Shown here: piece by piece, positions 32,662 to 46,720 of the stretch
Numbering within the stretch: position 1 is the first letter of the stretch
How the letters are laid out: each line of letters opens with the position of its first letter
Source: Acidimicrobiales bacterium
GTDB lineage: Bacteria > Actinomycetota > Acidimicrobiia > Acidimicrobiales > AC-14
Assembly (NCBI GenBank): GCA_036259055.1
Contig: DATACM010000356.1
Coordinates: forward strand, 1-48,014
Direction of reading: 5' to 3'
Length of the DNA stretch: 48,014 bases
Made by a program: the position numbers and the translations under genes
Notes under the pieces: generated by a model
Seen by the model: only the letters and a program-made list of their open reading frames with translations
Database searches by the model: none
Told to the model about the DNA's origin: nothing

Positions 32662-33795
32662 TCAGGAGATCCGCAGCTCCGGGCGGGAGATCCGGCCGGG
32701 GCCCATCTCGACCACCCGGCGGGCGAGGGCGTCGAAGGCCTGGGACGCCTCGCTCGTGGGGTCGGCGACGGTGACCGGCTCGCCCACGTCGCCTCCCTCC
32801 CGCAGGGCCGTCACCAACGGGATCTGGGCGAGCAGGGGGACGCCGAGGCTGTCGGCGAGCAGCTGGCCCCCGCCCGAGCCGAAGATCGGGTAGCGCTTGC
32901 CGTCGTCACCCGTGAACCAGCTCATGTTCTCGACCACGCCACGCACCGCCAAGTTGACCTTGCGGGCCATGAGGGCGGAGCGCTGGGCCACCCGCTGGGC
33001 CGCCGGCTGCGGCGTCGTGACCACCAACATCTCCGACCGGGGCAGGAACTGGGCCATCGACAGGGCGACGTCGCCGGTGCCGGGGGGCATGTCGACGAGG
33101 AGGAACGCCGGGTCGCCCCAGAGGACGTCGGTGAGGAACTGCTCGAGGGCCTTGTGCAGCATGGGCCCCCGCCAGATGACGGGCTGGTCGTCGCCCACGA
33201 AGAACCCGGTGGAGATCACCTTCACGCCGTGGGCCACCGGGGGGACGATCATCCCGTCGATCACGACCGGCTCGTGGCCGATGCCGAGCATCTTGGGGAC
33301 CGAGAACCCGTAGACGTCGGCGTCGAGGACGGCCACCTCGCGGCCCAGCCGGGCCAGGGCGACGGCCAGGTTGACGGTGACCGACGACTTGCCCACGCCG
33401 CCCTTCCCCGACGACAGGCCGAGCACCCGCGTGCGCGAGGCGGGGTCGGAGAAGGGGTTCGGCGGCGCCGTCCCCGGCCCGTGCTGGTGGCCGGCGGCGG
33501 GACCACCGGGACCCCCGTGGAGGCGCTGGCGGAGGGCGGCCCGCTCCTCGTCCGACATCACGGTGAGGTCGACCTCGACCTCGCGCACGCCTTCCAGAGG
33601 CTGGACCGCCCGGGTGACCCGATCGGTGATCTCGGTCCGCAGCGGGCACCCGGCAACGGTGAGGGCGACGGTGACGCCGACCCGGCCGTCGTCGACCCGG
33701 ACCTGGCGCACCATGTCGAGATCGACGATGCTGCGCTGCAGCTCCGGGTCCTGTACCGGCCGGAGGGCATCGAGCACCTGGGCTTCGGTGGGCAT
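32662..33795 (-). CDS. mrp: Mrp/ApbC-type Fe-S cluster carrier ATPase with N-terminal DUF59/MIP18 domain
   Basis: 'DPELQRSIVDLDMVR', deviant P-loop 'SGKGGVGKSSVTVNLA', 'DADVYGFS', 'VDMPPGTGD'. Confidence 0.9.
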   Translation of the reverse strand: MPTEAQVLDALRPVQDPELQRSIVDLDMVRQVRVDDGRVGVTVALTVAGCPLRTEITDRVTRAVQPLEGVREVEVDLTVMSDEERAALRQRLHGGPGGPAAGHQHGPGTAPPNPFSDPASRTRVLGLSSGKGGVGKSSVTVNLAVALARLGREVAVLDADVYGFSVPKMLGIGHEPVVIDGMIVPPVAHGVKVISTGFFVGDDQPVIWRGPMLHKALEQFLTDVLWGDPAFLLVDMPPGTGDVALSMAQFLPRSEMLVVTTPQPAAQRVAQRSALMARKVNLAVRGVVENMSWFTGDDGKRYPIFGSGGGQLLADSLGVPLLAQIPLVTALREGGDVGEPVTVADPTSEASQAFDALARRVVEMGPGRISRPELRIS

Positions 33796-33844
33796 GGCGG
33801 CAGCGGCCTCCGATTTCTCCTATCCGAATAGTTACAATACCGAC

Positions 33845-35709: not shown

Positions 35710-35846
35710 CCCCGCCTCAAGGTGTGAGGACCAGGGGTCGAGGGAAAAGGGAGAAAAGCTGATCGACTTAGTCAGATTTGGTGGTAGCTTGTCGACCGTG
35801 GACCCCCGCGCCCCGAGCTCGTGACGTCGCCCAGGAGGTCGTGCCC

Positions 35847-37619
35847 ATGGCCATGACCCGCGAGATCAGCGCCGCCGCCCGGAAGGACATCGAGAAGTTC
35901 GAGGAGCAGCTCGCCCGGTACCTGGCCGGCGAGCTCGAGGAGGACGTCTTCCGGGTCTTCCGGCTCAACAACGGCATCTACGGCCAGCGCCAGGGCGGCC
36001 ACAACCAGATGGTGCGGGTGAAGGTCCCCTACGGGTCGCTCGACCCCGACCAGCTCGAGATGCTGGGCCACGTCGCCGACACGTACAGCCGAGGGTGGGG
36101 GCACATCACCACCCGCCAGAACATCCAGTTCCACTTCGTGCAGCTCGAGCGCGTCCCGGAGGTGCTCCGCGACCTGGCCAGCGTCGGGCTCACCACCCGG
36201 GAGGCGTGCGGCGACACGGTCCGCAACGTCACCGGCTGCTTCCTCGCCGGCGCCTGCCCCTTCGAGGTGCTCGACATCAGCCCCTGGGCCGAGGCGACGT
36301 TCCGCCACTTCCTCCACAACCCGATCGCCCAGCGCCTGCCGCGGAAGTTCAAGATCAACTTCTCGGGGTGCGCCACCGACTGCGGTCAGGCCATGTTCAA
36401 CGACATCGGCGTGATCGCCGTCAGCCGCCCCCGGGAGGACGGCACTCTGGAACCGGGGTTCCGGGTGTTCTTCGCCGGTGGGCTGGGGGCCAACCCCCAC
36501 CCCGCCCAGGCCCTCGAGGAGTTCACGCCCCGCGAGGAGCTGATGCCCACCGTCGAGGCGATCCTGCGGGTCTTCGACCATCACGGCAACCGCGACAACA
36601 AGCTCCGGGCCCGCATGAAGTGGCTGGTCGACACCATGGGCGTCGACGAGGTGCGCGAACGCATCCTCAAGGAGCGCCGGTTCCTCTTGGCCAGCTCCTC
36701 GTGGCCGGGCGGGCTGCCGGAGACGGTGAAGGAGGCGGGCGACGCTCCCGCCGGCGTCAGCACCGCGGTGGACGCCACTCCCGTCGGCACTCCTGTCACC
36801 CTGCGCCTCCAGAGGCACGATCCCTACTCCGACTGGGAGCGGGTCAACGTCGTGCGGGGCGCCGCCAAGGGAACCGTGTCGGCGCTCGCCTACGCCCGCC
36901 TGGGTGACGTCACCTCCGCCCAGTTCCGGGCGGTGGCGGCCATCCAGCGCGAGCTCAGGGTGGAGGTGCGCGTCACCAACCGCCAGAACCTCGTCTTCCG
37001 CGACCTCACCGAGGACCAGCTCCCCGAGCTGCACCGGCGGCTGGCCGCCATCGGCATGGCCGAGCCGGGCGCCGAGCTGGCCCGCGACGTGGTCGCCTGC
37101 CCCGGCGCCGACACCTGCAACCTGGCCGTCACCCAGAGCCGGGGCCTGGCCGACGACATCGGCCGCGCCCTCGAGGAGGCGGGGCTGGCCGAGGTCGGAG
37201 GGGTGCGCATCAACATCTCCGGCTGCACGAACTCCTGCGGCCAGCACCACATCTCCGACATCGGGTTCTTCGGGGTCGAGCGCCGGGCCCACGGGCAGGC
37301 CGCCCCCGGCTACCAGATGCTCCTGGGGGGGCACGTCGGCCAGACCCAGGTCGAGTTCGGCGACAAGGCCCTCCGACTGCCCGCCAAGAACGTCAGCCAG
37401 GCGGTCGTCAAGGTCGTCGGCCGCTTCGCCGGCGAGCGGGCGGCGGGCGAGACCTTCATCGACTGGCTCGAACGGTCCGGGGGGGCGCGCGCCATCGGCG
37501 CCGACCTGGCCGACCTCGACGCCTTCCCGACCCCCGAGGAGGGCCCCGAGTACTACGTCGACTACGACGAGACCGGCCCCTACGCCAAGAGCATCGGAGC
37601 TTCGGAGTGCGCCACATGA
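35847..37619 (+). CDS. sirA: ferredoxin-dependent sulfite reductase (siroheme/[4Fe-4S], NirA/SirA type)
   Basis: ATG 35847 follows AGGAGG. 'GHITTRQNIQFHFV', 'TTREACGDTVRNVTGC' and 'SGCTNSCGQHHISDIGF'. It is directly coupled to cysH, as in M. tuberculosis sirA-cysH. Confidence 0.9.
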   Translation: MAMTREISAAARKDIEKFEEQLARYLAGELEEDVFRVFRLNNGIYGQRQGGHNQMVRVKVPYGSLDPDQLEMLGHVADTYSRGWGHITTRQNIQFHFVQLERVPEVLRDLASVGLTTREACGDTVRNVTGCFLAGACPFEVLDISPWAEATFRHFLHNPIAQRLPRKFKINFSGCATDCGQAMFNDIGVIAVSRPREDGTLEPGFRVFFAGGLGANPHPAQALEEFTPREELMPTVEAILRVFDHHGNRDNKLRARMKWLVDTMGVDEVRERILKERRFLLASSSWPGGLPETVKEAGDAPAGVSTAVDATPVGTPVTLRLQRHDPYSDWERVNVVRGAAKGTVSALAYARLGDVTSAQFRAVAAIQRELRVEVRVTNRQNLVFRDLTEDQLPELHRRLAAIGMAEPGAELARDVVACPGADTCNLAVTQSRGLADDIGRALEEAGLAEVGGVRINISGCTNSCGQHHISDIGFFGVERRAHGQAAPGYQMLLGGHVGQTQVEFGDKALRLPAKNVSQAVVKVVGRFAGERAAGETFIDWLERSGGARAIGADLADLDAFPTPEEGPEYYVDYDETGPYAKSIGASECAT

Positions 37620-38320
37620 GCAGCTTCACCGACACCGACGTGGCCGCCGAGGCCGCCGACCTCCCTGATCCCGCCGAGCTGGCCGCCGTCTCGGCTCGCT
37701 TCGAGGAGGCCCATCCCAGCACGATCATCGCCTGGGCGGCGGAGCAGTTCGGCGACGGCCTCATCGTGGCCTCCTCCTTCGAGGACGCCGTGCTCGTGCA
37801 CCTGGCCTCGTCGGTGAAGCCCGACATCGAGGTGCTGTTCCTCGACACCCAGTACCACTTCGCCGAGACCCTGTGGTTCGTCGAGGAGGTCCGCTCCCGG
37901 TACCGGCTGAACCTGACGGTCGTGAAGCCCCTCGTCGAGCCCGACAACCTCTGGCAGCGCGACCTCGAGGGGTGCTGCCAACTGCGCAAGGTGGAGCCGC
38001 TCGCCCGCGGGCTGGCAGGCAAGTCGGCGTGGATCACCGGCCTCAAGCGGGTCGACGCGCCCACCCGGGCCAACACCCCCATCGTGGCCTGGGACGCACC
38101 CCGCTCGATGGTGAAGGTCAACCCCCTGGCCACCTGGACCAACGAGGACATCGCCGCCTACGCCGCCGACAACGAGCTGCCGGTCAACCCCCTCGCCGAG
38201 CGTGGCTACCCGTCGGTGGGCTGCTGGCCGTGCACCCGCCCGGTGGCGCCCGGCGAGGACCCCCGCTCAGGCCGCTGGGCGGGCACCTCCAAGACGGAGT
38301 GCGGCCTGCACCGCTCCTGA
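37616..38320 (+). CDS. cysH: adenylyl-sulfate (APS)/PAPS reductase, Fe-S type
   Basis: Its ATG overlaps the sirA stop (ATGA). 'FLDTQYHFAET', 'CCQLRKVEPL', 'GCWPCT', 'KTECGLH'. Confidence 0.9.
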   Translation: MSSFTDTDVAAEAADLPDPAELAAVSARFEEAHPSTIIAWAAEQFGDGLIVASSFEDAVLVHLASSVKPDIEVLFLDTQYHFAETLWFVEEVRSRYRLNLTVVKPLVEPDNLWQRDLEGCCQLRKVEPLARGLAGKSAWITGLKRVDAPTRANTPIVAWDAPRSMVKVNPLATWTNEDIAAYAADNELPVNPLAERGYPSVGCWPCTRPVAPGEDPRSGRWAGTSKTECGLHRS

Positions 38321-38357: not shown

Positions 38358-38693
38358 TTACCCCGACGCCGGAGCCCGGTTGGTGAAGTCGGGCGGGGGG
38401 ACGAACGAGATCGACCGCACGAGGGGGCGGACTTCGTCGGGCAGGGCGTCGACGGGGAGCTCGCGGCCGCCGTCGTCGACGGTGACCGAGGCGATCAGTC
38501 CCTCCTCGACCACCAGCTTGCGGCCGAAGAACTCCTCGAACAGCGACTTGGCCGCGCCGATGGAGAAGCTGGTCTGGAAGGGGGCGTGCACCTCGAACCC
38601 GGCCTTGGTGAGGAAGGACTTGGTCTGGGCGGTCGCCTGGTTGTCGTGCAGGCCGGGCGCACCGGCCGCCTCCCGCTCGCCGGCGTCGGCCAT
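38358..38693 (-). CDS. hypothetical protein (111 aa)
   Basis: ATG 38693. 'TKSFLTKAGFEVHAPFQTSFSIGAAKSLFEEFFGRKLVVEEGLIASVTVDDGGRELPVD' is a compact alpha/beta-looking domain with good GC3. The RBS is weak. No family recognised. Confidence 0.45.
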   Translation of the reverse strand: MADAGEREAAGAPGLHDNQATAQTKSFLTKAGFEVHAPFQTSFSIGAAKSLFEEFFGRKLVVEEGLIASVTVDDGGRELPVDALPDEVRPLVRSISFVPPPDFTNRAPASG

Positions 38694-38755
38694 CTGCACC
38701 ACTGCCGAAACAGTGGGGTCGGCCCGGTCGTCGGTTGCCACGAAGGTCCAGCCTA

Positions 38756-38783
38756 CTAGGGCCGGATCTTGATCCGGCCCTAG
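38756..38783 (-). terminator. perfect 13-bp-arm palindrome overlapping the DyP stop codon
   Basis: CTAGGGCCGGATC-tt-GATCCGGCCCTAG. The minus-strand TAG stop (38780-38782) lies inside one arm. It is the strongest hairpin seen in the window. Confidence 0.55.
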
Positions 38784-40186
38784 CGGTCGGTAGGCGCCTC
38801 TCCGGCCAGGTGGTGCAGGGCGCGGATGCCCGGAAGGAAGAAATAGGCCCCGCCCCGCACGGTGACGAAGTTGGCGATCCCGTGGTAGCGCCGGCGCACG
38901 GGCATCCCCTGCACGGTGAACACGCCGCCGTCGTCGGGCTGGGTACCCGAGACGGGGTCGGCCTCGTCGTAGAGGCCGCCGAACTTGGTGTTGTTGCACC
39001 AGTGGTGCTGGACGAACTCGAACTGCCGCTCGATGTTGGCGTTCAGGCAGATGAAGAACAGGCCCCGGTCGGCGCCGTCGTCGCCCGCCAAGGGGTCCTC
39101 GAGCCCCGGGCCGTACACCCGGCCCCGCCGCACGATGCGGTGGAGGTTCGAGAGCTCCAGGTTGCGGGCGGGCTTGGCGTCGCCGAAGTCCCGAGGGTTC
39201 GAGCGGCGGATGTGCGACCCGATGGGGCAGCGGAAGCCGTGAGGGTCCCACTCGGCGTAGCCGAAGCTGTTGTCGGCCCCGAGGTCGGGGTCGTCGCGGT
39301 GGGGTGCCCGCACCAGCGGCGCCCCGCTCGGCCACCGCCCCACGCACTTGGCGGCCAGCTTCACCCGGGCCTCCTCGTCACCGCCGGTCGTGCGGTCGAG
39401 GTACTGCCAGAAGCCGGCCACGTCCTGGTGGAGGTGGCGGAAGACGAGGTAGGTGCCGTTGCGGCCGAACTCCCACGGCCGGGGCGTCCCGAGACCTGCC
39501 TTCGGGACCGGGGTGACCTTGCCGTACCCGTTGGCATAGCCCAGAACGAACTCGCCGGTGGCGATGACCGTGCGGCGGGCGTCGTCGCCGCTGAGCTTGC
39601 CCTCCTGGCCGCTCCCCTCGATGACCGGCTGGGACATCCCGTCGGCGAACCCGAAGTGCTCGACGCCGAACTTCCCGACGTTCACCTTGCCCGGCAGGCG
39701 CTCGGGGTCGAGCCGGCGGATCAGCCGCAACCCCTCCAGACGCTCGGGCCCCAGCTCCTCCCCCACCAAGGCATCGAACTCCTCGGGACCGCGGGCGTAG
39801 AGCAGGAGGAGCACGTGGAGGTCCTCGTCGGGCCGGGCGCCCCACTCCCAGTAGGACGGGTCGCTCTGCCCTGAGTCCCCGAGGACGCGGGACCGGTGGG
39901 GGACGGCCATCCCCTCCTGGAAGGGCACGGAGAACGTGCGCAGGTCGTCCTCGGCCATCCCGAGCGCCCGCAGCCCGGCGCAGGTGAAGGCGACGTTGAT
40001 GCAATGGCGGTCGGCTGAGCGGACCGCGTTGGTGACCCGCGCCGCCAGGCCGCCCAGCCAGCGCCGCGCCCCCTCCGGATCGGTCACCGCGAGCAAGGCG
40101 AAGGTGGCGTGGCCCATCTTGCCGTAGCCGCTCACCACGAAGCCCTGGACGTCGTCGCGCTCGAGCTCGCCGTCGGCGGCCGCCAT
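38780..40186 (-). CDS. DyP-type (dye-decolorizing) haem peroxidase
   Basis: ATG 40186 follows GAAGGGGGAAGG. 'DDVQGFVVSGY', 'HFGFADGMSQP' (GxxDG motif), proximal His 'CPIGSHIRRSNPRD', 'RRGRVYG', 'GLFFICLNANIERQFEFVQ'. Confidence 0.85.
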   Translation of the reverse strand: MAAADGELERDDVQGFVVSGYGKMGHATFALLAVTDPEGARRWLGGLAARVTNAVRSADRHCINVAFTCAGLRALGMAEDDLRTFSVPFQEGMAVPHRSRVLGDSGQSDPSYWEWGARPDEDLHVLLLLYARGPEEFDALVGEELGPERLEGLRLIRRLDPERLPGKVNVGKFGVEHFGFADGMSQPVIEGSGQEGKLSGDDARRTVIATGEFVLGYANGYGKVTPVPKAGLGTPRPWEFGRNGTYLVFRHLHQDVAGFWQYLDRTTGGDEEARVKLAAKCVGRWPSGAPLVRAPHRDDPDLGADNSFGYAEWDPHGFRCPIGSHIRRSNPRDFGDAKPARNLELSNLHRIVRRGRVYGPGLEDPLAGDDGADRGLFFICLNANIERQFEFVQHHWCNNTKFGGLYDEADPVSGTQPDDGGVFTVQGMPVRRRYHGIANFVTVRGGAYFFLPGIRALHHLAGEAPTDR

Positions 40187-40200
40187 CGCCTTCCCCCTTC

Positions 40201-41583
40201 CTAGAGGCGCCGGAGCCATGTCTCGGTGTCCTGGTCGTCGAGGTCGGCGAACAGCTTCTCCCGGATCTCGATGTTGTTGCCGATGTTCGCCACCGTCAGG
40301 TCGGGGTAGGCGCTGTACCAGACTCGGCTGCGCACCTGGCTGTAGCGGGCGAAGGCCTTGAGGCGGTCGCCGTCCCTGGCTCCGTCGAGGATGAGGAACT
40401 TGGCCGGCGGGTAGCCGATTTGGTTGTCGGTGTTGGCCCACACCGCGTTGAGGCCGAAGGCGGCCAGGTCGATGAAGTCGTTGAGGTAGCTCTCCCAGCT
40501 CCCGTCGAAGTTGGAGAGGAAGACGACGCTCGTGTCGTTGCTGGTGAGGACCCACCGGGCGAAGTGGACGGAGGTGATCCCGCCCAGCTTCCCCCGGTTG
40601 GCCACCAGCCTGACCGCGACGATCACGACGGCGAACACCACCTTCAGCAGGGTGAGGCGGAAGCGGCTCGGCTTGACGAACGTGACGCTGGCCAGGTGGT
40701 TCTGGAGCTGGAAATCCTCCCGCTCGACGACGTGGCCGAGGGCCTGGCTCCACTGGGCGTAGGCGGTCTGCCAGTCGGGCTTGCGCCGGGCGTCCTTCTT
40801 GTCGTCCTGGATCTCGTGGTAGCGCAGCACGGCGGCGAACGCCCCGAAGGCCGAGCCGAGCGCCCAAAGCGCCAGCTTGGCCAGGAGCCGCGACGTGCGG
40901 CTGGACTTCCGGGAGACGGCGGTGCGGACCAGCTTGTAGAGCCCGAAGAGGATCGGATAGCTGCCGAAGACGGCCAGCTCGGCCCCGTACCTCACGAGGA
41001 AGGGCCGGGGGAGCTCGTGCTGGGCCCATTCGAGGGACGGCTCGCGTCGGACGAACTCCTGGATGCGCCGGCGCACCTCCTGCGGGGGCTGGGAACCCAG
41101 GTCGGTGGTCGCCATGGCCTCGTCGAGGAACTCGCCGATGCGGACCCGCAGCTGCTCCTCCTGGCGGATGGTCGTCACCGTGCGCCCGGGCCAGGCGACG
41201 AACATGGCGCCGGGACCGATGTCGTGGGACACGAGGTACTCGACGAGGGCGGCGTGGTCGTCGGTGCCCGAGGCCGGGTAGCCGGCGCAGTGCTGGTAGA
41301 TCCGGCCGAGCCCGGGCGCCGCCCGAGCGACCAGGTCGCCGAGGAAGCCCCGGACCTCGCCGTCGATGCTCCCCTCGAACAGGAGGTAGGGGTCGGCCGT
41401 GCCGTCCTCGACCACGATCATGCTCGAGTAGTGCAGGCGGTCGAGGTCGACGAAGGGGATGTGCGGGTTGCGCCTGATGTCGCCCCCGATGGCGTCGAGC
41501 AGGTCCTCCAGGTCGGCGGTGTGGCCCGGCACGATCCTGGTGACGATCGTGAAGCCTCGCTGGGGCGGGACGCGGTCCTTCAC
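40201..41583 (-). CDS. membrane-anchored protein of unknown function that looks internally duplicated
   Basis: GTG 41583 overlaps the upstream P450 stop (GTGA), and the gene ends 14 nt before the DyP ATG. The N-half is 'FTIVTRIVPG...LHYSSMIVVEDG...YLLFEGSIDG'. There are two central TM helices. The C-half is 'ITSVHFARWVLTSND..VVFLSNFDGSWESYLNDFID'. Confidence 0.7.
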   Translation of the reverse strand: MKDRVPPQRGFTIVTRIVPGHTADLEDLLDAIGGDIRRNPHIPFVDLDRLHYSSMIVVEDGTADPYLLFEGSIDGEVRGFLGDLVARAAPGLGRIYQHCAGYPASGTDDHAALVEYLVSHDIGPGAMFVAWPGRTVTTIRQEEQLRVRIGEFLDEAMATTDLGSQPPQEVRRRIQEFVRREPSLEWAQHELPRPFLVRYGAELAVFGSYPILFGLYKLVRTAVSRKSSRTSRLLAKLALWALGSAFGAFAAVLRYHEIQDDKKDARRKPDWQTAYAQWSQALGHVVEREDFQLQNHLASVTFVKPSRFRLTLLKVVFAVVIVAVRLVANRGKLGGITSVHFARWVLTSNDTSVVFLSNFDGSWESYLNDFIDLAAFGLNAVWANTDNQIGYPPAKFLILDGARDGDRLKAFARYSQVRSRVWYSAYPDLTVANIGNNIEIREKLFADLDDQDTETWLRRL

Positions 41584-42854
41584 CTCAGCTCCTCGCGGGG
41601 GGCGAAGTCGACGAGGAGGCGGTCGGGGAACGGTCCGTCGTAGACGATCCTGCCGTCGGCACCGGGGGCGAGGCGCAGGTCGTCCAGCTGCACGAGGGCG
41701 GCGGCGACCTCGGGCATCTGCACGAGGTTGACGTGCTCGCCGAAGCACGTGTGCATCCCGTGGCCGAAGTGCAGGTAGGCCTCCTGGGGCCGGTCGGTGC
41801 GGAACCGGTCCGGCTCGGGGAACGCATCGGCGTCGAACATCGCCGCACCGATGGCCAGGTAGACGAGGCAGCCGGCGGGGACCCGCTGCTCGCGGCGCGT
41901 CCCTTGGGCGATGGCGGTCTCCCGCGCCGCCTTGCGGGCGAGGGCGGGGTTGAGGGGGTTGAAGCGGAGGGCCTCGAGGACGAAAGGGGTGAGCGCCTCC
42001 CCACCGCCCGCCCGCGCCGCCTGGCGGGCCCCCGCCACGATCTCCGGCCGGCGCAGGAGCTCGAAGACGGCGTGGGTCGTGGCCTTCGACGTCGTGTCGA
42101 GGGCGCCGACGACGACGCCTCCGATGTTGCGGATGATCCCCTCGTCGCTGAGGTGGGTCTCGGGCTCGCCGGCCAGGCGCACGAGGCGGGTGAAGAAGTC
42201 GTCGGGCGCGGCGCCGTCCCCGTCGGCGATCTGCGCCCGGCGCTCGGCGATCAGCTGGTGGACGTAGGCGTGGAACTCGGCGCCCGACGCCTCCCCGGCC
42301 TTCTGCACACCGGGGTCGCGGGTGACGTTCATGAACGTCTCGTAGAAGATGCTGCGCATCCACCGCATCAACGTGGCCTCGTCGGGCCCGGGGATGCCGA
42401 AGTAGGAGCTGATCACCCGGGCGGCGGTGACCCGGGCCAGGCCGTTGACGACGTCGATCCGCCCGTGGGCACGGGCGGCGTCGATCAGCTCGCCAGCGGT
42501 GGTGCGGACGAGCTCCCGGATGCGGTCGAGGTCGCCCGGGTGCACGCAGCGCTCGAGGATCCCGTTCTCCCGGTCGTACTGCGGCCCCCGGTCCATGCCC
42601 AGGACGAAGGGCCCGTTGACCCGGTCCATCACCGGGGCGTTGAGCTCGGAGATGGTGAAGTCCTCGTCGCGGCGGAAGACGTCGACGCAGTCGGCGTGGC
42701 GGCTGACGACGGCGGTCCTCCCGACGACGAGCACCGGAGCGAACTGGCGCAGCGCCCGGAAGGCCACCCTGATGGGCCCGTAGTTGTTGAGCTGCGCCAC
42801 CAGGCGCAGCTTGACGAGCTGGGCCAACCGCCGCCCACGACCGGACCGTGCCAT
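41580..42854 (-). CDS. cytochrome P450 (second of two)
   Basis: I-helix 'GALDTTS', 'EALRFNP' (ExxR), haem loop 'FGHGMHTCFG'. Confidence 0.9.
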   Translation of the reverse strand: MARSGRGRRLAQLVKLRLVAQLNNYGPIRVAFRALRQFAPVLVVGRTAVVSRHADCVDVFRRDEDFTISELNAPVMDRVNGPFVLGMDRGPQYDRENGILERCVHPGDLDRIRELVRTTAGELIDAARAHGRIDVVNGLARVTAARVISSYFGIPGPDEATLMRWMRSIFYETFMNVTRDPGVQKAGEASGAEFHAYVHQLIAERRAQIADGDGAAPDDFFTRLVRLAGEPETHLSDEGIIRNIGGVVVGALDTTSKATTHAVFELLRRPEIVAGARQAARAGGGEALTPFVLEALRFNPLNPALARKAARETAIAQGTRREQRVPAGCLVYLAIGAAMFDADAFPEPDRFRTDRPQEAYLHFGHGMHTCFGEHVNLVQMPEVAAALVQLDDLRLAPGADGRIVYDGPFPDRLLVDFAPREELR

Positions 42855-42875
42855 CCCGCGGCAGCCTATGCCGGA

Positions 42876-44186
42876 TCAGTGGCTCGCCACGCGTAGCGGT
42901 AGGCCGCCCTTGGGGCGGAGGGCGAACTGGGGGACGGGCTGGACGGGCTTCTCGGCGGCGGGGTGGAACGACCACCGCTGGCTCAGGGTGGCGACCAGCA
43001 GCGGCAGGGCCATCGACGCGAAGTGCTCGCCAAGGCAGGTCCGGAAGCCCAACGAGAAGGGGAAGTAGGGCGCGGCGGCGAGGTCCTGGCGCGTCCAGCG
43101 GTCCGGGGAGAAGGTGGTCGGGTCGGGGTACCACCGTCCGTCCCGCTGGGTCACGAAGGGGCTCACGAGCACGTACGACTTGGCCGGGATGGTGTAACCG
43201 CCCAGCTCCTGATTGCCCGCCGCCTGGCGGAGCATCCCCCAACCGATGGCGTACAGCCGCAGCGACTCCTTCACCACGGTGCCGAGGTACGGCATCCGCT
43301 CGACGCTCTCCGCGGTGGGCCGCTCTCCGCCCAGGACGCCGTCGACCTCGGCATGCAGGCGGTCTTGCTCGGCCGGGTTGCGAGCCAGCTCGTAGAACGT
43401 CCACGTGAGGGCATCGGCGACGGTCTCCCACGCGGCCAGGAACATGAAGACGGCCTCGTCCCGCGCCTCGGCATCGGTCAGCGGCGCGCCGCCTTCGCCG
43501 TCGTGGGCGAGCATCATCGCCAAGAGGCTCGAGGTCGGGTCACCCGAGTCGCGTGCCCTGCGGGTCATCTGGTCGATGTAGCTGTCGACCCGCTCCCTGC
43601 CCCGCCGCATCCGGGTCGTGCTGGGCAGCGGCAGCCGGTCGAGGAGGGGGCCGATGGGAAGGTTGTAGCGCTGGGCCCGGGCGAGGACGGCGTCGAGTGC
43701 CTCCTGCACATCGGGCGCCTCCGTCTCGACGGGCGAGGCGAACAGGGCCCGGCCCGAGATGCGGAACATGAGCTCGAGCATCTGGCCGTGCAGGTCGATG
43801 ACGCCGTCCCGCCATTCGTCCCGGAGCCGCGCCCCCTGGTCCGCCACCTCGCCGGCGTACCGGGCGACCGACGGCGGCGCCATCGCCGGCTCGGCGATCA
43901 GCCGGTGGCGGCGGTGCTCCGCTCCCTCCAGTGTCTGCAGGTTGTCGCCCACCGCCGGTCGGACGTCACCTAGCCCCTTCGGCTTCCGGAACTGGTCCCG
44001 ACGAGTGTCGAGGACCTCCCGGATGAGATCGGGCCGGTTGACGAAGAACACCCTGACGCCTGGGAGCAGCGCCAGCTCAGTGACGTCGTGGCCCTCAGCG
44101 GCGACCCGCTGGAAGAGCCCAAGGATGTCCCCGAGCAGCCCGAGGAAGTTGGGGACCGGCGATCCGAACCTCGGGGGGGCGCTCAT
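42876..44186 (-). CDS. cytochrome P450 (first of two; start 44186, 44195 or 44222)
   Basis: I-helix 'LAAWETVA', 'ESLRLYA' (ExxR), haem loop 'FPFSLGFRTCLG'. Confidence 0.9.
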   Translation of the reverse strand: MSAPPRFGSPVPNFLGLLGDILGLFQRVAAEGHDVTELALLPGVRVFFVNRPDLIREVLDTRRDQFRKPKGLGDVRPAVGDNLQTLEGAEHRRHRLIAEPAMAPPSVARYAGEVADQGARLRDEWRDGVIDLHGQMLELMFRISGRALFASPVETEAPDVQEALDAVLARAQRYNLPIGPLLDRLPLPSTTRMRRGRERVDSYIDQMTRRARDSGDPTSSLLAMMLAHDGEGGAPLTDAEARDEAVFMFLAAWETVADALTWTFYELARNPAEQDRLHAEVDGVLGGERPTAESVERMPYLGTVVKESLRLYAIGWGMLRQAAGNQELGGYTIPAKSYVLVSPFVTQRDGRWYPDPTTFSPDRWTRQDLAAAPYFPFSLGFRTCLGEHFASMALPLLVATLSQRWSFHPAAEKPVQPVPQFALRPKGGLPLRVASH

Positions 44187-44233
44187 CGCCGCCATTGAAG
44201 CAAACGCCTCGCGAGCGGGCATACTCGTCGCCC

Positions 44234-44551
44234 GTGGCCACCCCCAAAGAGACAAGCGCCTTCCGCGTCGTCGCCATCATCGAGGCCGTCACCTACCTGG
44301 TGTTGCTGGCCGCCGTGGTCCTGTACCGGGTGTTCGACGGCCCGGACTACATCGGCTTCCTCGGGCCCGTGCACGGCATCGCCTTCCTCGTCTACCTCGT
44401 GCTCGTCCTGCGGATCCGCGAAGGCCAGGGATGGGGATTCTGGCGGACGATCGTCGTCATCCTCGCCGCCGCCGTCCCCTTCGGGGGGTTTTGGGCGGGC
44501 CGCCACCTGGTCGAGGAAGAGGTCGGCCCTTCAGCTACCCCGCGGCCCTGA
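44234..44551 (+). CDS. DUF3817 family integral membrane protein (start uncertain; track gives TTG 44195)
   Basis: 'AFRVVAIIEAVTYLVLLAAVVLYRVF...GPVHGIAFLVYLVLVL...RTIVVILAAAVPFGGFW'. Confidence 0.7.
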   Translation: MATPKETSAFRVVAIIEAVTYLVLLAAVVLYRVFDGPDYIGFLGPVHGIAFLVYLVLVLRIREGQGWGFWRTIVVILAAAVPFGGFWAGRHLVEEEVGPSATPRP

Positions 44552-45707
44552 GGGCGGCGGCCGCCTCGAGCCGTACGCGGAAGTCGGGATCGTCGGCGTG
44601 GGCGGCGATCGCTTCGCGACTGGGCTCGGGGCCGAGCTCGGCCAGCCCGCGCAGGGCCTTCCACCGCACCCACGCGTCGGCGTCGTCCAGCGCCTCCTCG
44701 AGCAGCGGCCGCAGGTCCGCACGGCCGACGTCGACAACCGCGTCCACGGCCGCCCGCCGCACCGACCGGACGGGGTCGGCGGCGAGTCGGGCCCACTCGG
44801 CGGCGGCCACGCCGGCGTCGCCCTCGCGTAGCAGGCTGGCCGCGACCTGACGCCGCGCCGCGTCGTCGCTCCGTGCCGCCGCCCGGACCTTCTCCAGGTC
44901 GGCGGGGTCGCCGGGACGGAGGGACCGCAGCTCCCGCCAGGCCTGCTCCAGGCGGCTGCGGCGCCGCCCGGCGGTGTCGCCGCTCTGCGCCGATCCCACT
45001 GCGCCGGCTCCGGCGGGACCTCCCATGACGCGCGGGGGACCGGCGTCGGGATCGCCTCCGGGCGACGAGAACTCCTCGGCGACGACGTTCAAGACGGGCA
45101 TGAGCAGGCGTTCCCACTGGGTCGGCCGGTGCAGCCCGACGGCGACGAAGTCGGGGCCGACCAGCACGTTGTCCACGTCGGGGAACTCATCGAACAGCCG
45201 GGCGGCGGCGGGGTCGTCCCGTGCCCGTTCGGCTGACTCGTACCACCGGCTCGGACCGTCGTGGATGGGGCCGACCTGGAAGCGGATCGTGCGGGGGTTC
45301 GGCGTGGCCTCGGGCACGACGGGGCCGTCGAAGCTGGCGGCCAGCAGGTCGTCGGCCGCCCGGCTCGCACCGGCGGGCTCGATGGCGGCACCGCCCGTCG
45401 ACGCGACCCGTACCGTGAAGCGCCCCGCCTCCCAGCCGTACTCGAGGGTGAGCTCGGCGTCCAGGGCCCGGCGCCAGGTCCCGTCTCCGGGGCCGACGGC
45501 GTCGGCGAGGGCGTCGTCCTCGGCCCGTCCCCAGGGCTCGGCCGAGAAGAAGCGCATGAGCAGCTTCTTGGTGGGCCCGAGGGACTCGAACGGCAGACCC
45601 TTCAAGGCGCCGGTCAGGTGGTCGAACGCCGCCCGGACCAGGCCCCGCTCGACCACCAGACGCCGGGCCGCGTCGAGAGTGGGGCCGGTGGTCGACACGG
45701 GCCGCAC
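44535..45707 (-). CDS. Nfu/NifU-N-domain protein with C-terminal HEAT (PBS-lyase type) repeats
   Basis: 'TPNPRTIRFQVGP ... NVLVGPDFVAVGLHRPTQWERLLMPVLNVVAEEF' is the Nfu_N-like part. The HEAT-like repeats are 'DPVRSVRRAAVDAVV', 'DADAWVRWKALRGLAELG' and 'DPDFRVRLEAAAAL'. Confidence 0.7.
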   Translation of the reverse strand: MRPVSTTGPTLDAARRLVVERGLVRAAFDHLTGALKGLPFESLGPTKKLLMRFFSAEPWGRAEDDALADAVGPGDGTWRRALDAELTLEYGWEAGRFTVRVASTGGAAIEPAGASRAADDLLAASFDGPVVPEATPNPRTIRFQVGPIHDGPSRWYESAERARDDPAAARLFDEFPDVDNVLVGPDFVAVGLHRPTQWERLLMPVLNVVAEEFSSPGGDPDAGPPRVMGGPAGAGAVGSAQSGDTAGRRRSRLEQAWRELRSLRPGDPADLEKVRAAARSDDAARRQVAASLLREGDAGVAAAEWARLAADPVRSVRRAAVDAVVDVGRADLRPLLEEALDDADAWVRWKALRGLAELGPEPSREAIAAHADDPDFRVRLEAAAALRAAG

Positions 45708-45823: not shown

Positions 45824-46720
45824 GTGGACACATGGATCGTTCAGCTCGAGGCCACGAGCACCGAGCACACCGGGCCGATCGACAGGGGGAGCGTCGCGCA
45901 CCTGCTCGGAGCGCTCGGCGCCCATCCGGTCGGGCTGCACACGCCTGGGCGCTGCCTCGTCCAGCTGAGGATCGCAAGCGACAGCCCGGCGGAGGCCCTC
46001 GGCGCTGCCCTCGCCCGCTGGGAGGAGGCCTTCCAGGCGCTCGGGCGCCCGCCCTGGCGGATCGTGAGAACAGACGTGCTCGCGCCCGACGAGCTGGAAC
46101 GGGAGTTCGAGGACGAGGACCTCCAGGCCACCTTCGGCACCGTCCGGGTGCCCGACGAGGGCGACGGCGTCGCCGACGAGCTTCTCCGGCGCGCGTTCTC
46201 CGACGCCCTGACGAACCTGGCCAACGAGGAGGCGTTCCGAGCGCATGTCCACGCCGCGCTGGCTCGGTCGCGCCGGCTCGGCACGACCGCGGCCGTCGTG
46301 TGCATCGACCTCGGCACCGTTCCCACGGTCGACGACCGCTCGGGCGCGGCGCCGAACGACGATCTCCTCGTCACGGTGGCCCGGAACCTCAGGACGAACC
46401 TGCGGGCGTCCGACACGCTGGCTCGTGTCGGCCACGACCGGTTCGCCGTCGTGACCCAGAGCAGCTCGTCGGACAGCGCCGTCGTGCTGGCCGAGCGACT
46501 CCTGGACGCCGTCAACGTCCGGGCCGTCATCGACGGCGAGGTCGTCGTCCCGAGGGCGCAGGCCGGTGTCGCCCTGAGCGAGCCGACGGACACTGCGGAG
46601 CGCCTCTACGAGAAGGCGCGTGGCGCTTTGACCTTGGCCACGAGAACTCCAGAGGCCCGCTGCAAGGTCTGGGGCGCGCCCACGTCGCCACCGGGTGCCG
46701 TGCGCCTCCCACCTTGCTGA
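45824..46720 (+). CDS. degenerate GGDEF-domain protein (GHDRF) with unknown N-domain
   Basis: 'DALTNLANEEAF ... AVVCIDLG ... RASDTLARVGHDRFAVV'. GGDEF is replaced by GHDRF, but an RxxD sits five residues upstream. Confidence 0.7.
   Translation: MDTWIVQLEATSTEHTGPIDRGSVAHLLGALGAHPVGLHTPGRCLVQLRIASDSPAEALGAALARWEEAFQALGRPPWRIVRTDVLAPDELEREFEDEDLQATFGTVRVPDEGDGVADELLRRAFSDALTNLANEEAFRAHVHAALARSRRLGTTAAVVCIDLGTVPTVDDRSGAAPNDDLLVTVARNLRTNLRASDTLARVGHDRFAVVTQSSSSDSAVVLAERLLDAVNVRAVIDGEVVVPRAQAGVALSEPTDTAERLYEKARGALTLATRTPEARCKVWGAPTSPPGAVRLPPC

Follow-up and report, generated by a model that had tools for sequence, protein, structure and literature searches.

Genomic linkage across bacterial phyla, and natural fusion, of a cytochrome P450, an unannotated membrane protein and a DyP-type peroxidase

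What would bring cytochrome P450s, a membrane protein of no annotated family and a DyP-type peroxidase together in one closely packed run of genes? The question is raised by the minus strand of a 48,014-nt stretch of DNA (72% G+C; hereafter the window, by which we mean the whole of this stretch) from contig DATACM010000356.1 of an Acidimicrobiales bacterium, whose nearest relatives are metagenome-assembled genomes of the Acidimicrobiales. An original prediction, made from the letters of the sequence, placed four genes there, which we call P450-A, P450-B, X and DyP (Table 1), and proposed that they encode a dedicated, membrane-linked oxidative system belonging to no described pathway. The genes and their spacing are as predicted, and the core of the idea holds, but the unit is a different one: it consists of P450-B, X and DyP, with or without a GST-fold protein, and not of the four genes listed. 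We conclude that P450-B, X and DyP probably constitute one conserved, self-contained, membrane-tethered multi-haem enzyme machine in which X is the central partner.

The first four genes of the run are tightly spaced. P450-A and P450-B are separated by 21 nt, the stop codon of P450-B overlaps the start codon of X (GTGA, 41580-41583; -4 nt), and the 14-nt gap between X and DyP holds a purine-rich GGGGGAAGG 5' of the DyP ATG. The proposed translational coupling of the whole operon therefore stands in part, as the GTGA overlap is a genuine signature of coupling but the other junctions carry no such signature. The gene for a DUF3817 protein is, as had been noted, the divergent neighbor of the operon.

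Is this arrangement peculiar to the Acidimicrobiales, or do the genes keep company elsewhere? The linkage counts given below refer to the best 80 species-representative loci (one genome per GTDB species), which were searched with the window proteins. A DyP of the same clade is encoded directly downstream of X, on the same strand, in every locus with enough sequence to judge (79/79), and a reciprocal check that started from DyP homologues found X upstream in both loci checked (L092 and L093). A P450-B orthologue with 40-65% identity immediately precedes X in 44 of 78 loci and comes just after DyP in 5 more, and P450-X junctions of -4 to +2 nt recur in the gene calls of other genomes. When the open reading frames (ORFs) of the 80 neighborhoods were clustered all against all, only X, DyP and P450 emerged as recurrent at the coverage and E-value cut-offs used. 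The hosts are spread over the Actinomycetota, Acidobacteriota, Planctomycetota, Gemmatimonadota, Pseudomonadota (e.g., Methylomonas and Janthinobacterium), Bacteroidota and relatives (e.g., Mucilaginibacter and Salinibacter), and Chloroflexota. The original prediction had tied its own fate beforehand to co-localization of the four genes in other genomes; this is borne out across phyla for P450-B, X and DyP, but for P450-A it is seen in a single related locus, L001. X itself is widespread. A scan of one genome per GTDB species finds 555 relatives, and a search among scored candidates (90% identity clusters) finds 540 proteins at E <= 0.001, all of them unnamed or hypothetical bar one with a spurious UniRef label. 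An exhaustive search with only the C-terminal repeat of X gives 1829 clusters at 50% identity.

Evidence of a different kind comes from natural fusions. A protein-level plasmid search recovered X-like sequence from within plasmid genes annotated "cytochrome P450" or "Dyp-type peroxidase domain-containing protein", and the architecture of such fusions was assigned with Pfam and with hidden Markov models built from the loci. Single P450-X-DyP chains are encoded in Sulfitobacter pontiacus (1620 aa), on plasmid pNL2 of Novosphingobium aromaticivorans (1443 aa; WP_011907039) and in Pararhizobium qamdonense (1423 aa), and an X-DyP chain of 976 aa is encoded in Rhizobium leguminosarum (WP_065284198); further X-DyP, P450-X and P450-X-DyP fusions occur among the cluster representatives. 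In all cases the order of the domains is that of the genes in the operon. No flavin or Fe-S domain was detected with Pfam in the four alphaproteobacterial fusions scanned, which include both P450-X-DyP and X-DyP types. The strongest evidence available that the three proteins act as a unit is this combination of fusions in operon order and universal X-DyP linkage, and it leads us to suggest, from sequence, that P450-B, X and DyP form a physical complex. The same comparative data dispose of the simplest alternative, that the genes are adjacent by chance and work independently. It is true that the junctions within the window, and a hairpin described below, do not by themselves prove an operon. 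However, chance adjacency, to which we assign next to no probability, is effectively refuted by the 79/79 pairing in no fewer than seven phyla, by the reciprocal check that began with DyP, and by several independent fusions that keep this gene order.

What, then, is the protein in the middle? X falls into no Pfam, NCBIfam or PADLOC family, and 56 of its homologues give only spurious sub-threshold matches. Sequence and profile searches of the PDB return no match among solved structures, sequence profiles assign X neither to the ABM family PF03992 nor to any other curated family, and its exact sequence has no record in the contig collection. The AlphaFold2 model, on the other hand, is a confident one (predicted local distance difference test [pLDDT], 92.9; predicted template modelling score [pTM], 0.88) and has two ferredoxin-like repeats flanking a long pair of helices (residues 195-223 and 229-265). 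The two halves of the protein are recognizably related (hhalign of the N-terminal against the C-terminal half: probability, 99.3%; E, 8.5e-21), and the best Foldseek match is the tandem ABM/SchA-like protein WhiE-ORFI (9lmn_A; E, 1.2e-4; probability, 1.0). We conclude that X arose by tandem duplication of an alpha+beta domain, probably a barrel of ABM-like fold, with a hydrophobic helical hairpin lying between the two copies, and that it represents a new family. Like the WhiE-ORFI/SchA-like tandem ABM proteins, X has two ferredoxin-like repeats in its model, which may form a pseudo-dimeric barrel; unlike them, it has a membrane hairpin and motifs of its own (QNH, IHFARW, and SNFDGSWExYLxDF), shows no sequence similarity to ABM proteins, and does not occur in polyketide synthase clusters among the loci examined. 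Two other relationships were considered and rejected: X is not a diverged paralogue of DyP (hhalign probability, <1%), nor is it a relative of PD40/WD40 proteins or oligogalacturonate lyases, to which its SNFDGSW motif gives a spurious match. The UniRef name "WD40-like Beta Propeller Repeat" on the X of Actinoplanes regularis (P0079; locus L005) is a mis-annotation that derives from such a sub-threshold PD40 match.

The description of X as membrane anchored is supported, in that a hydrophobic stretch separates the repeats in every homologue examined, fusions included (86/86). Its shorter versions measure 28-32 aa and have central prolines, which fits a re-entrant or hairpin anchor with both repeats on the same side of the membrane. 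This side is probably the cytoplasmic one, since the P450 and DyP, which flank X in the fusions, are without signal peptides. In some homologues (P0323, P0348, and P0361) insertions of ~100-380 residues with no Pfam match occur at the position of the hairpin. In L092 (3609-5000) the match of X to the family profile ends at 280/427 and is followed by a 240-nt gap before DyP; the contig comes from a long-read metagenome, and a frameshift or an error of assembly is the probable cause.

Conservation in X is concentrated in the C-terminal repeat, where E289, N295, R309, H340, W344, N358, W363, Y366, K409, R413 and W422 are each at least 95% conserved among 247 diverse members, fusions included. These residues sit on both the sheet and the helices, where ABM proteins bind their ligands, and we read the cluster as a putative binding or catalytic pocket for a substrate or cofactor. 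In ABM proteins, the space between sheet and helices accommodates reactive aromatic or quinol substrates; some members are cofactor-less oxygenases and others are fidelity or chaperone factors (PMC6689052). It could be argued instead that the ligand is haem, i.e., that X is a haem- or porphyrin-binding barrel of the IsdG, Cld, HemQ or DyP-like kind that relays electrons or haem between the P450 and DyP or links them to the membrane quinone pool. X is invariably placed between two haem enzymes, its C-terminal repeat conserves H340, R309, K409, R413, Y366, W344, W363 and W422, with H51 at a pseudo-symmetric position in the N-terminal repeat, and the alpha+beta barrel is a recurrent haem-binding fold (PMC4835899). 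Nevertheless, X resembles no haem-binding barrel in sequence or profile, its best fold matches are cofactor-less ABM proteins, and its membrane hairpin has no conserved His or Cys. We therefore consider a haem-handling X unlikely.

The peroxidase raises fewer questions of identity. DyP scores above the cut-off of TIGR01413 (110.6 versus 100.5 bits), with the Pfam half-domains just under theirs (DyP_N, 22.9 versus 27.5; Dyp_perox_C, 19.9 versus 20). Its GxxDG motif and proximal His are intact, as had been claimed, and the catalytic motifs are FGFADG (D182), GSHIRRSNPR (proximal H325) and IERQFEF (distal R387); D182, H325 and R387 are invariant in 80/80 X-linked DyPs. The nearest solved structure is DrDyP of Deinococcus radiodurans (8re2/8re3; E, 6.5e-70), followed by an ancestral D-type enzyme, fungal DyPs, DyP2 and AnaPX. 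With these closest relatives and a length of 468 aa, within the ~450-500 aa of the class, DyP is class C/V-like. It is not an EfeB-like class A/I enzyme exported by twin-arginine translocation (Tat): the protein starts MAAADGELERDDVQG, has no signal peptide, comes without efeU/efeO genes, aligns with the cytoplasmic DrDyP from residue 7 onward, and scores 35 bits against a cut-off of 428 on the Tat-substrate equivalog TIGR01412. Nor does the locus have the layout of an encapsulin and its cargo, as no further family recurs beside X-DyP at the clustering cut-offs used. Known DyP partner systems are EfeUOB/FepABC iron uptake and the encapsulins that package DyPs (PMC8197335). The module resembles these systems in the genetic coupling of a DyP to a dedicated partner, not itself an enzyme, that determines its place of action. 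It differs from them in that their DyPs are of class A (Tat exported) or class B (with an encapsulin targeting peptide), whereas the window DyP is class C/V-like and without a signal, and in that it is paired with a membrane protein, monotopic or of hairpin type, from a new family and additionally with a P450. DrDyP, which is likewise cytoplasmic and has the same catalytic Asp, His and Arg, is reported to be a poor peroxidase: at neutral pH its haem is six-coordinate and low-spin and it shows almost no activity, and no physiological substrate is known for it (PMC10820274); such weak activity at neutral pH would fit an enzyme that needs a partner. DrDyP has GxxDM where the window DyP has GxxDG, and it scores 239 bits, compared to 311-400 bits for the X-linked DyPs of other phyla, although the latter values come from tblastn and thus from a different scoring method.

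For P450-B the question is where its oxidizing power comes from. The protein matches Pfam p450 (PF00067; 71.9 bits versus a cut-off of 22.8), and C370, R297 and E/D294 are each retained in 54/54 orthologues; translations and orthologue alignments agree with the claim that both P450s of the window keep the Cys haem loop and ExxR. The I-helix carries D253-T254, and a D/E-T pair is found in 51/54 orthologues, the exceptions being three alphaproteobacterial fusions with P-T. Such an acid-alcohol pair typically marks P450s that activate O2 and depend on an external redox partner, and not hydroperoxide-rearranging P450s. By the I-helix criterion, P450-B is thus not of the CYP74, CYP8A or CYP5A type, and it does not match the NCBIfam model CypC (CYP152 peroxygenase). 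It also lacks the layout of a class I P450, with no ferredoxin or ferredoxin reductase gene in the operon and no such family recurrent in the 80 related neighborhoods. The original prediction was right that the operon contains no genes for ferredoxin, ferredoxin reductase, polyketide or non-ribosomal peptide synthases, terpene synthase or transporters. As an argument, however, missing redox partners within the operon are weak evidence, because bacterial P450s frequently rely on partners encoded at other loci. P450 BM3, CYP116B and the class I operons are comparable in that a P450 is fused or tightly coupled to proteins it needs, but those partners are reductases, whereas in the module they are not, and no flavin or Fe-S family recurs in the 80 neighborhoods.

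A second line of evidence on the chemistry is provided by loci in which another haem protein stands where the P450 would be. In L094 a catalase-related haem domain of ~335 aa (Pfam Catalase, 28-30 bits versus a cut-off of 25; motifs RDAHAKG and RxxxY) is fused to X in place of the P450, and DyP follows with a 4-nt overlap. Stand-alone catalase-related genes abut DyP in the P450-less loci L061 and L050. Catalase-related haem proteins and certain P450s are interchangeable in the conversion of organic hydroperoxides, and the substitution therefore hints, but does no more than hint, at a peroxide-linked role for the P450. The suggestion that the system is possibly peroxide-linked gains from this replacement and loses from the O2-activation pair that P450-B keeps. 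In a Planctomycetia metagenome-assembled genome (L022, 68-3040), a 990-aa ORF located ~5 kb upstream of X has a catalase-related N terminus and a large uncharacterized C-terminal region.

Two known groups of oxylipin enzymes invite comparison. The fungal Ppo enzymes (linoleate diol synthases) join a haem peroxidase-like fatty-acid dioxygenase to a P450 hydroperoxide isomerase; they have no reductase partner, and the P450 uses the peroxide made by the adjoining domain. The likeness lies in the union of a P450 with a haem domain of peroxidase type, whether in a single polypeptide or in a unit of several, and in the lack of a reductase partner. The differences are that the Ppo peroxidase belongs to the eukaryotic animal-haem-peroxidase/cyclooxygenase family and that of the module has the DyP fold, that Ppo enzymes have no X-like middle component, membrane hairpin or GST domain, and that P450-B, unlike Ppo, keeps the acid-alcohol pair. 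Fusions of a catalase-related allene oxide synthase with a lipoxygenase occur in coral and cyanobacteria, a small catalase-related peroxidase is represented by a 33-kDa protein of Mycobacterium avium, and in oxylipin pathways catalase-related domains and CYP74 P450s are interchangeable hydroperoxide-converting enzymes. A ~340-aa catalase-related domain (RDAHxK distal, RxxxY proximal) likewise takes the place of the P450 in some X-DyP loci. Its partners in the module, in contrast to the lipoxygenase fusions, are X and DyP; no lipoxygenase is among the recurrent neighbor families, and the gene upstream of the L094 catalase-X fusion encodes a kinase/AAA ATPase.

Many loci have an additional component. 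A targeted search gave 37 tblastn hits to a GST-like domain, which correspond to 32 loci once duplicates are taken out, or ~40% of loci. Methylomonas, Pyrinomonadaceae and Planctomycetia have it N-terminal to the P450 in fusions of 670-730 aa. In Actinoplanes and Geodermatophilus it has a gene of its own that follows DyP, and elsewhere such a separate gene is located upstream of X; the window has no GST-like gene. Its classification as a Cys-type GST was rejected, as the candidate Cys varies (C/S/G/A). A peroxiredoxin was found beside the module by targeted search in one lineage only. Bacterial turnover of lignin aromatics is classically explained with P450, DyP and GST-fold enzymes, and the module could accordingly be read as a device for detoxification or catabolism of lipophilic aromatics (lignin dimers, plant phenolics and quinones), in which the P450 hydroxylates or demethylates, DyP oxidizes the phenol and the GST conjugates or cleaves, as in phase I/II metabolism or the bacterial lignin toolkit. 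Besides the match of component families, many hosts live in soil, Novosphingobium aromaticivorans among them, and many lineages have the P450 and the GST-fold domain in one chain. However, the module also occurs in Methylomonas methanotrophs, marine Sulfitobacter and Salinibacter, for which lignin is not expected; all components are without signal peptides, and clustering of neighboring ORFs reveals no recurrent ring-cleavage or transport genes. Moreover, the 40-65% identity of P450-B across phyla points to a single, probably endogenous substrate rather than to varied xenobiotics. For these reasons we regard the aromatic-catabolic explanation as improbable.

How might a membrane-tethered P450-X-DyP machine operate? 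The conserved C-terminal pocket of X would bind a lipophilic, membrane-resident substrate or cofactor and present it to both haem enzymes. DyP would perform a peroxide-driven oxidation, and the P450 would perform an oxygenation or a peroxide-dependent rearrangement, with the catalase-related domain as a stand-in in some lineages; where the GST-fold domain is present, it may add a further, possibly thiol-dependent step. Peroxide-linked chemistry and a lipophilic substrate are thus what we infer for the module. Several observations weigh against this account. X-DyP occurs in 29 of 78 loci with no P450 within ~8 kb, so that the P450 is not obligatory to the module; the upstream genes in P450-less loci are unrelated to one another (e.g., those for an outer-membrane protein, a GH3 hydrolase and Kup). 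The AlphaFold2 model of a natural X-DyP fusion has a pTM of 0.61, a disordered linker and no confident X-DyP interface, and hhalign detects no profile-level homology between X and DyP. The fit of X to the ABM fold is loose, with TM-scores of 0.36-0.45 when the tandem protein is matched and of ~0.5-0.6 when single ABM domains are, and variants of X with a short hairpin may also be single-pass proteins. The retained I-helix pair of P450-B has been mentioned, and the replacement of the P450 by a catalase-related domain involves three loci, with a Pfam score barely over the cut-off.

A more far-reaching version of the same account, which we put forward tentatively and hold to be doubtful, makes X the founder of an enzyme or cofactor-binding family. 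The membrane-dipping ABM-like barrel would itself produce or trap an organic hydroperoxide, derived from a lipid, quinol or carotenoid of the membrane, and would pass it on directly to DyP and to the P450 or catalase-like domain. If X were such a source of hydroperoxide, the module would be a redox-partner-free membrane oxidation or repair machine distributed across phyla, and it would provide the first defined physiological context for bacterial class C/V DyPs.

The remaining two genes of the run belong to a narrower circle of genomes. P450-A is a clear P450 (PF00067; 205.3 bits versus a cut-off of 22.8) with the Cys loop FSLGFRTCLG and ESLR as its ExxR; it may alternatively start at an ATG at 44195, as its orthologue in L001 does. 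Its nearest solved structures are 7wzl and CYP170A1 (3dbg), and its affinities are with CYP170 and other P450s of the E class. Of 87 related loci, only L001, the nearest relative that covers this position, yielded an orthologue, and P450-A is outside the conserved module. At the other end of the run, the original prediction overlooked a co-directional fifth gene, g5, and its four-gene operon is to that extent incomplete. g5 is 85-94% conserved in L001 and L008; its substitutions relative to these relatives fall mainly on third codon positions (39/60), with 34 synonymous and 18 non-synonymous codon changes, and its G+C content at third codon positions (GC3) is 0.93. From its conservation, third-position bias and GC3, we conclude that g5 is a real coding sequence. 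It was not found outside L001 and L008 among the related loci searched. The module of the window has gained the lineage-specific P450-A and g5, and it is without a GST.

One might conclude from these two genes that the run is a lineage-specific tailoring operon for a secondary metabolite, in which both P450s act on a scaffold made elsewhere in the genome. In favor of this are the tight spacing of the first four genes with g5 co-directional after DyP, the resemblance of P450-A to the terpenoid-oxidizing CYP170 and to pentalenene oxygenase, and the retention of P450-A (L001) and g5 (L001 and L008) together with the module in the nearest relatives covering them. However, both genes are absent from more distant loci, where P450-B, X and DyP persist across phyla, also in fused form; ORF clustering finds no scaffold-forming enzyme conserved in any neighborhood; and the neighbors in the window are genes for sulfur assimilation and Fe-S metabolism. 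A tailoring operon is thus very improbable in our view.

Table 1. Features of the five-gene run, in coordinates of the window
Feature	Position	Strand	Description
g5	38358-38741	-	127 aa; fifth gene, co-directional, 3' of the hairpin; no Pfam/NCBIfam family
Palindrome	38756-38783	.	perfect 13-bp stem; overlaps the DyP stop codon
DyP	38780-40186	-	468 aa; DyP-type peroxidase, class C/V-like, cytoplasmic; TIGR01413
X	40201-41583	-	460 aa; unannotated family, central module component
X, C-terminal alpha+beta repeat (aa 285-460)	40204-40731	-	highly conserved; polar/aromatic cluster
X, hydrophobic helical hairpin (aa 195-265)	40789-41001	-	probable membrane anchor, two-pass or re-entrant; conserved juxtamembrane E257 and D260
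X, N-terminal alpha+beta (ferredoxin-like) repeat (aa 1-190)	41014-41583	-	less conserved; H51 and D74 near-invariant
P450-B	41580-42854	-	424 aa; cytochrome P450 of the module
P450-A	42876-44186	-	436 aa; lineage-specific accessory cytochrome P450

Between DyP and g5 lies a palindrome at which the operon had been said to end. Read on the minus strand, it is CTAGGGCCGGATC-AA-GATCCGGCCCTAG. Its 13-bp perfect stem is the longest in the window, in line with its description as the strongest hairpin there, and its centroid fold energy of -27 kcal/mol beats that of 200/200 shuffled sequences (z = -3.3). The operon, however, does not end there, as g5 lies beyond. The hairpin is a 27-nt insertion with TAG on each flank that is missing from the two closest relatives, L001 and L008, in which the DyP stop passes directly into the conserved g5 leader. 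No T-run that would give a U-tract follows it, and a terminator scan did not call it. Since it is missing in L001 and L008 and has no U-tract, the hairpin is not a conserved operon boundary, and with a coding gene starting 14 nt further on, its interpretation as a conserved Rho-independent terminator was rejected. A repeated element was rejected as well, there being a single copy in the window. In appearance the palindrome is a small palindromic element that was inserted here, and not a terminator of ancestral origin.

As far as the open-access full-text literature is concerned, including the 2021 and 2026 DyP reviews and the DrDyP paper, we found neither a P450-DyP operon or fusion nor the X family described, in agreement with the earlier statement that no described pathway matches the operon. 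The individual enzyme families are well known; what appears not to have been described before is their partnership, the natural triple fusion and the X family. The roles and substrates of bacterial DyPs, in particular those of class C/V, are open or unaddressed in the two reviews and the DrDyP paper (PMC10820274). Here, a large DyP clade is paired in every locus counted with a previously unannotated membrane protein family; a dedicated P450 is usually present as well, and a GST-fold domain often. The fusions represent a new kind of P450 partnership, with a peroxidase and a barrel protein and not with a reductase, and X defines a domain that deserves a family entry. The single-chain fusions of Novosphingobium aromaticivorans DSM 12444, Sulfitobacter pontiacus and Rhizobium leguminosarum, which are culturable and genetically tractable, are ready material for biochemistry and genetics.

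The surroundings of the run and of the module vary. None of the five operon proteins matches a PADLOC model of anti-phage defence. The five-gene run ends against the PAPS reductase gene cysH (37607-38320), which is convergent with g5, and the window further encodes a sulfite reductase (35778-37619), an Mrp/ApbC Fe-S carrier ATPase (32662-33819), a protein with Nfu_N and HEAT repeats (44535-45707) and a GGDEF protein (45824-46720). The Nfu/HEAT and DUF3817 neighbors are common to the window and L001 and are not found at distant loci. A conserved 55-aa hydrophobic ORF, absent from the window and with no Pfam match on record, stands beside or near the module in eight loci, mostly of Actinomycetota (L007, 6570-6737; L092, 2139-2306; L011, L015, L017, L020, L021, and L037); in L007, L092 and L020 it is directly upstream of the P450. 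In Geodermatophilus pulveris (L002, 1-7988 and 14148-17470), and in this genome only, contractile-injection-system genes (sheath, gp19 tube, baseplate, Pvc16_N and AAA ATPase) directly precede P450-X-DyP-GST, which is followed by tyrosinase and SCO1/SenC genes. Very large genes for Ser/Thr kinases with AAA_16 (STAND-like) domains lie upstream of the module in two unrelated loci (L001, 1-2656; L094, 1-3303), and the L001 protein additionally has GAF and histidine-kinase domains, which may reflect regulation or coincidence.

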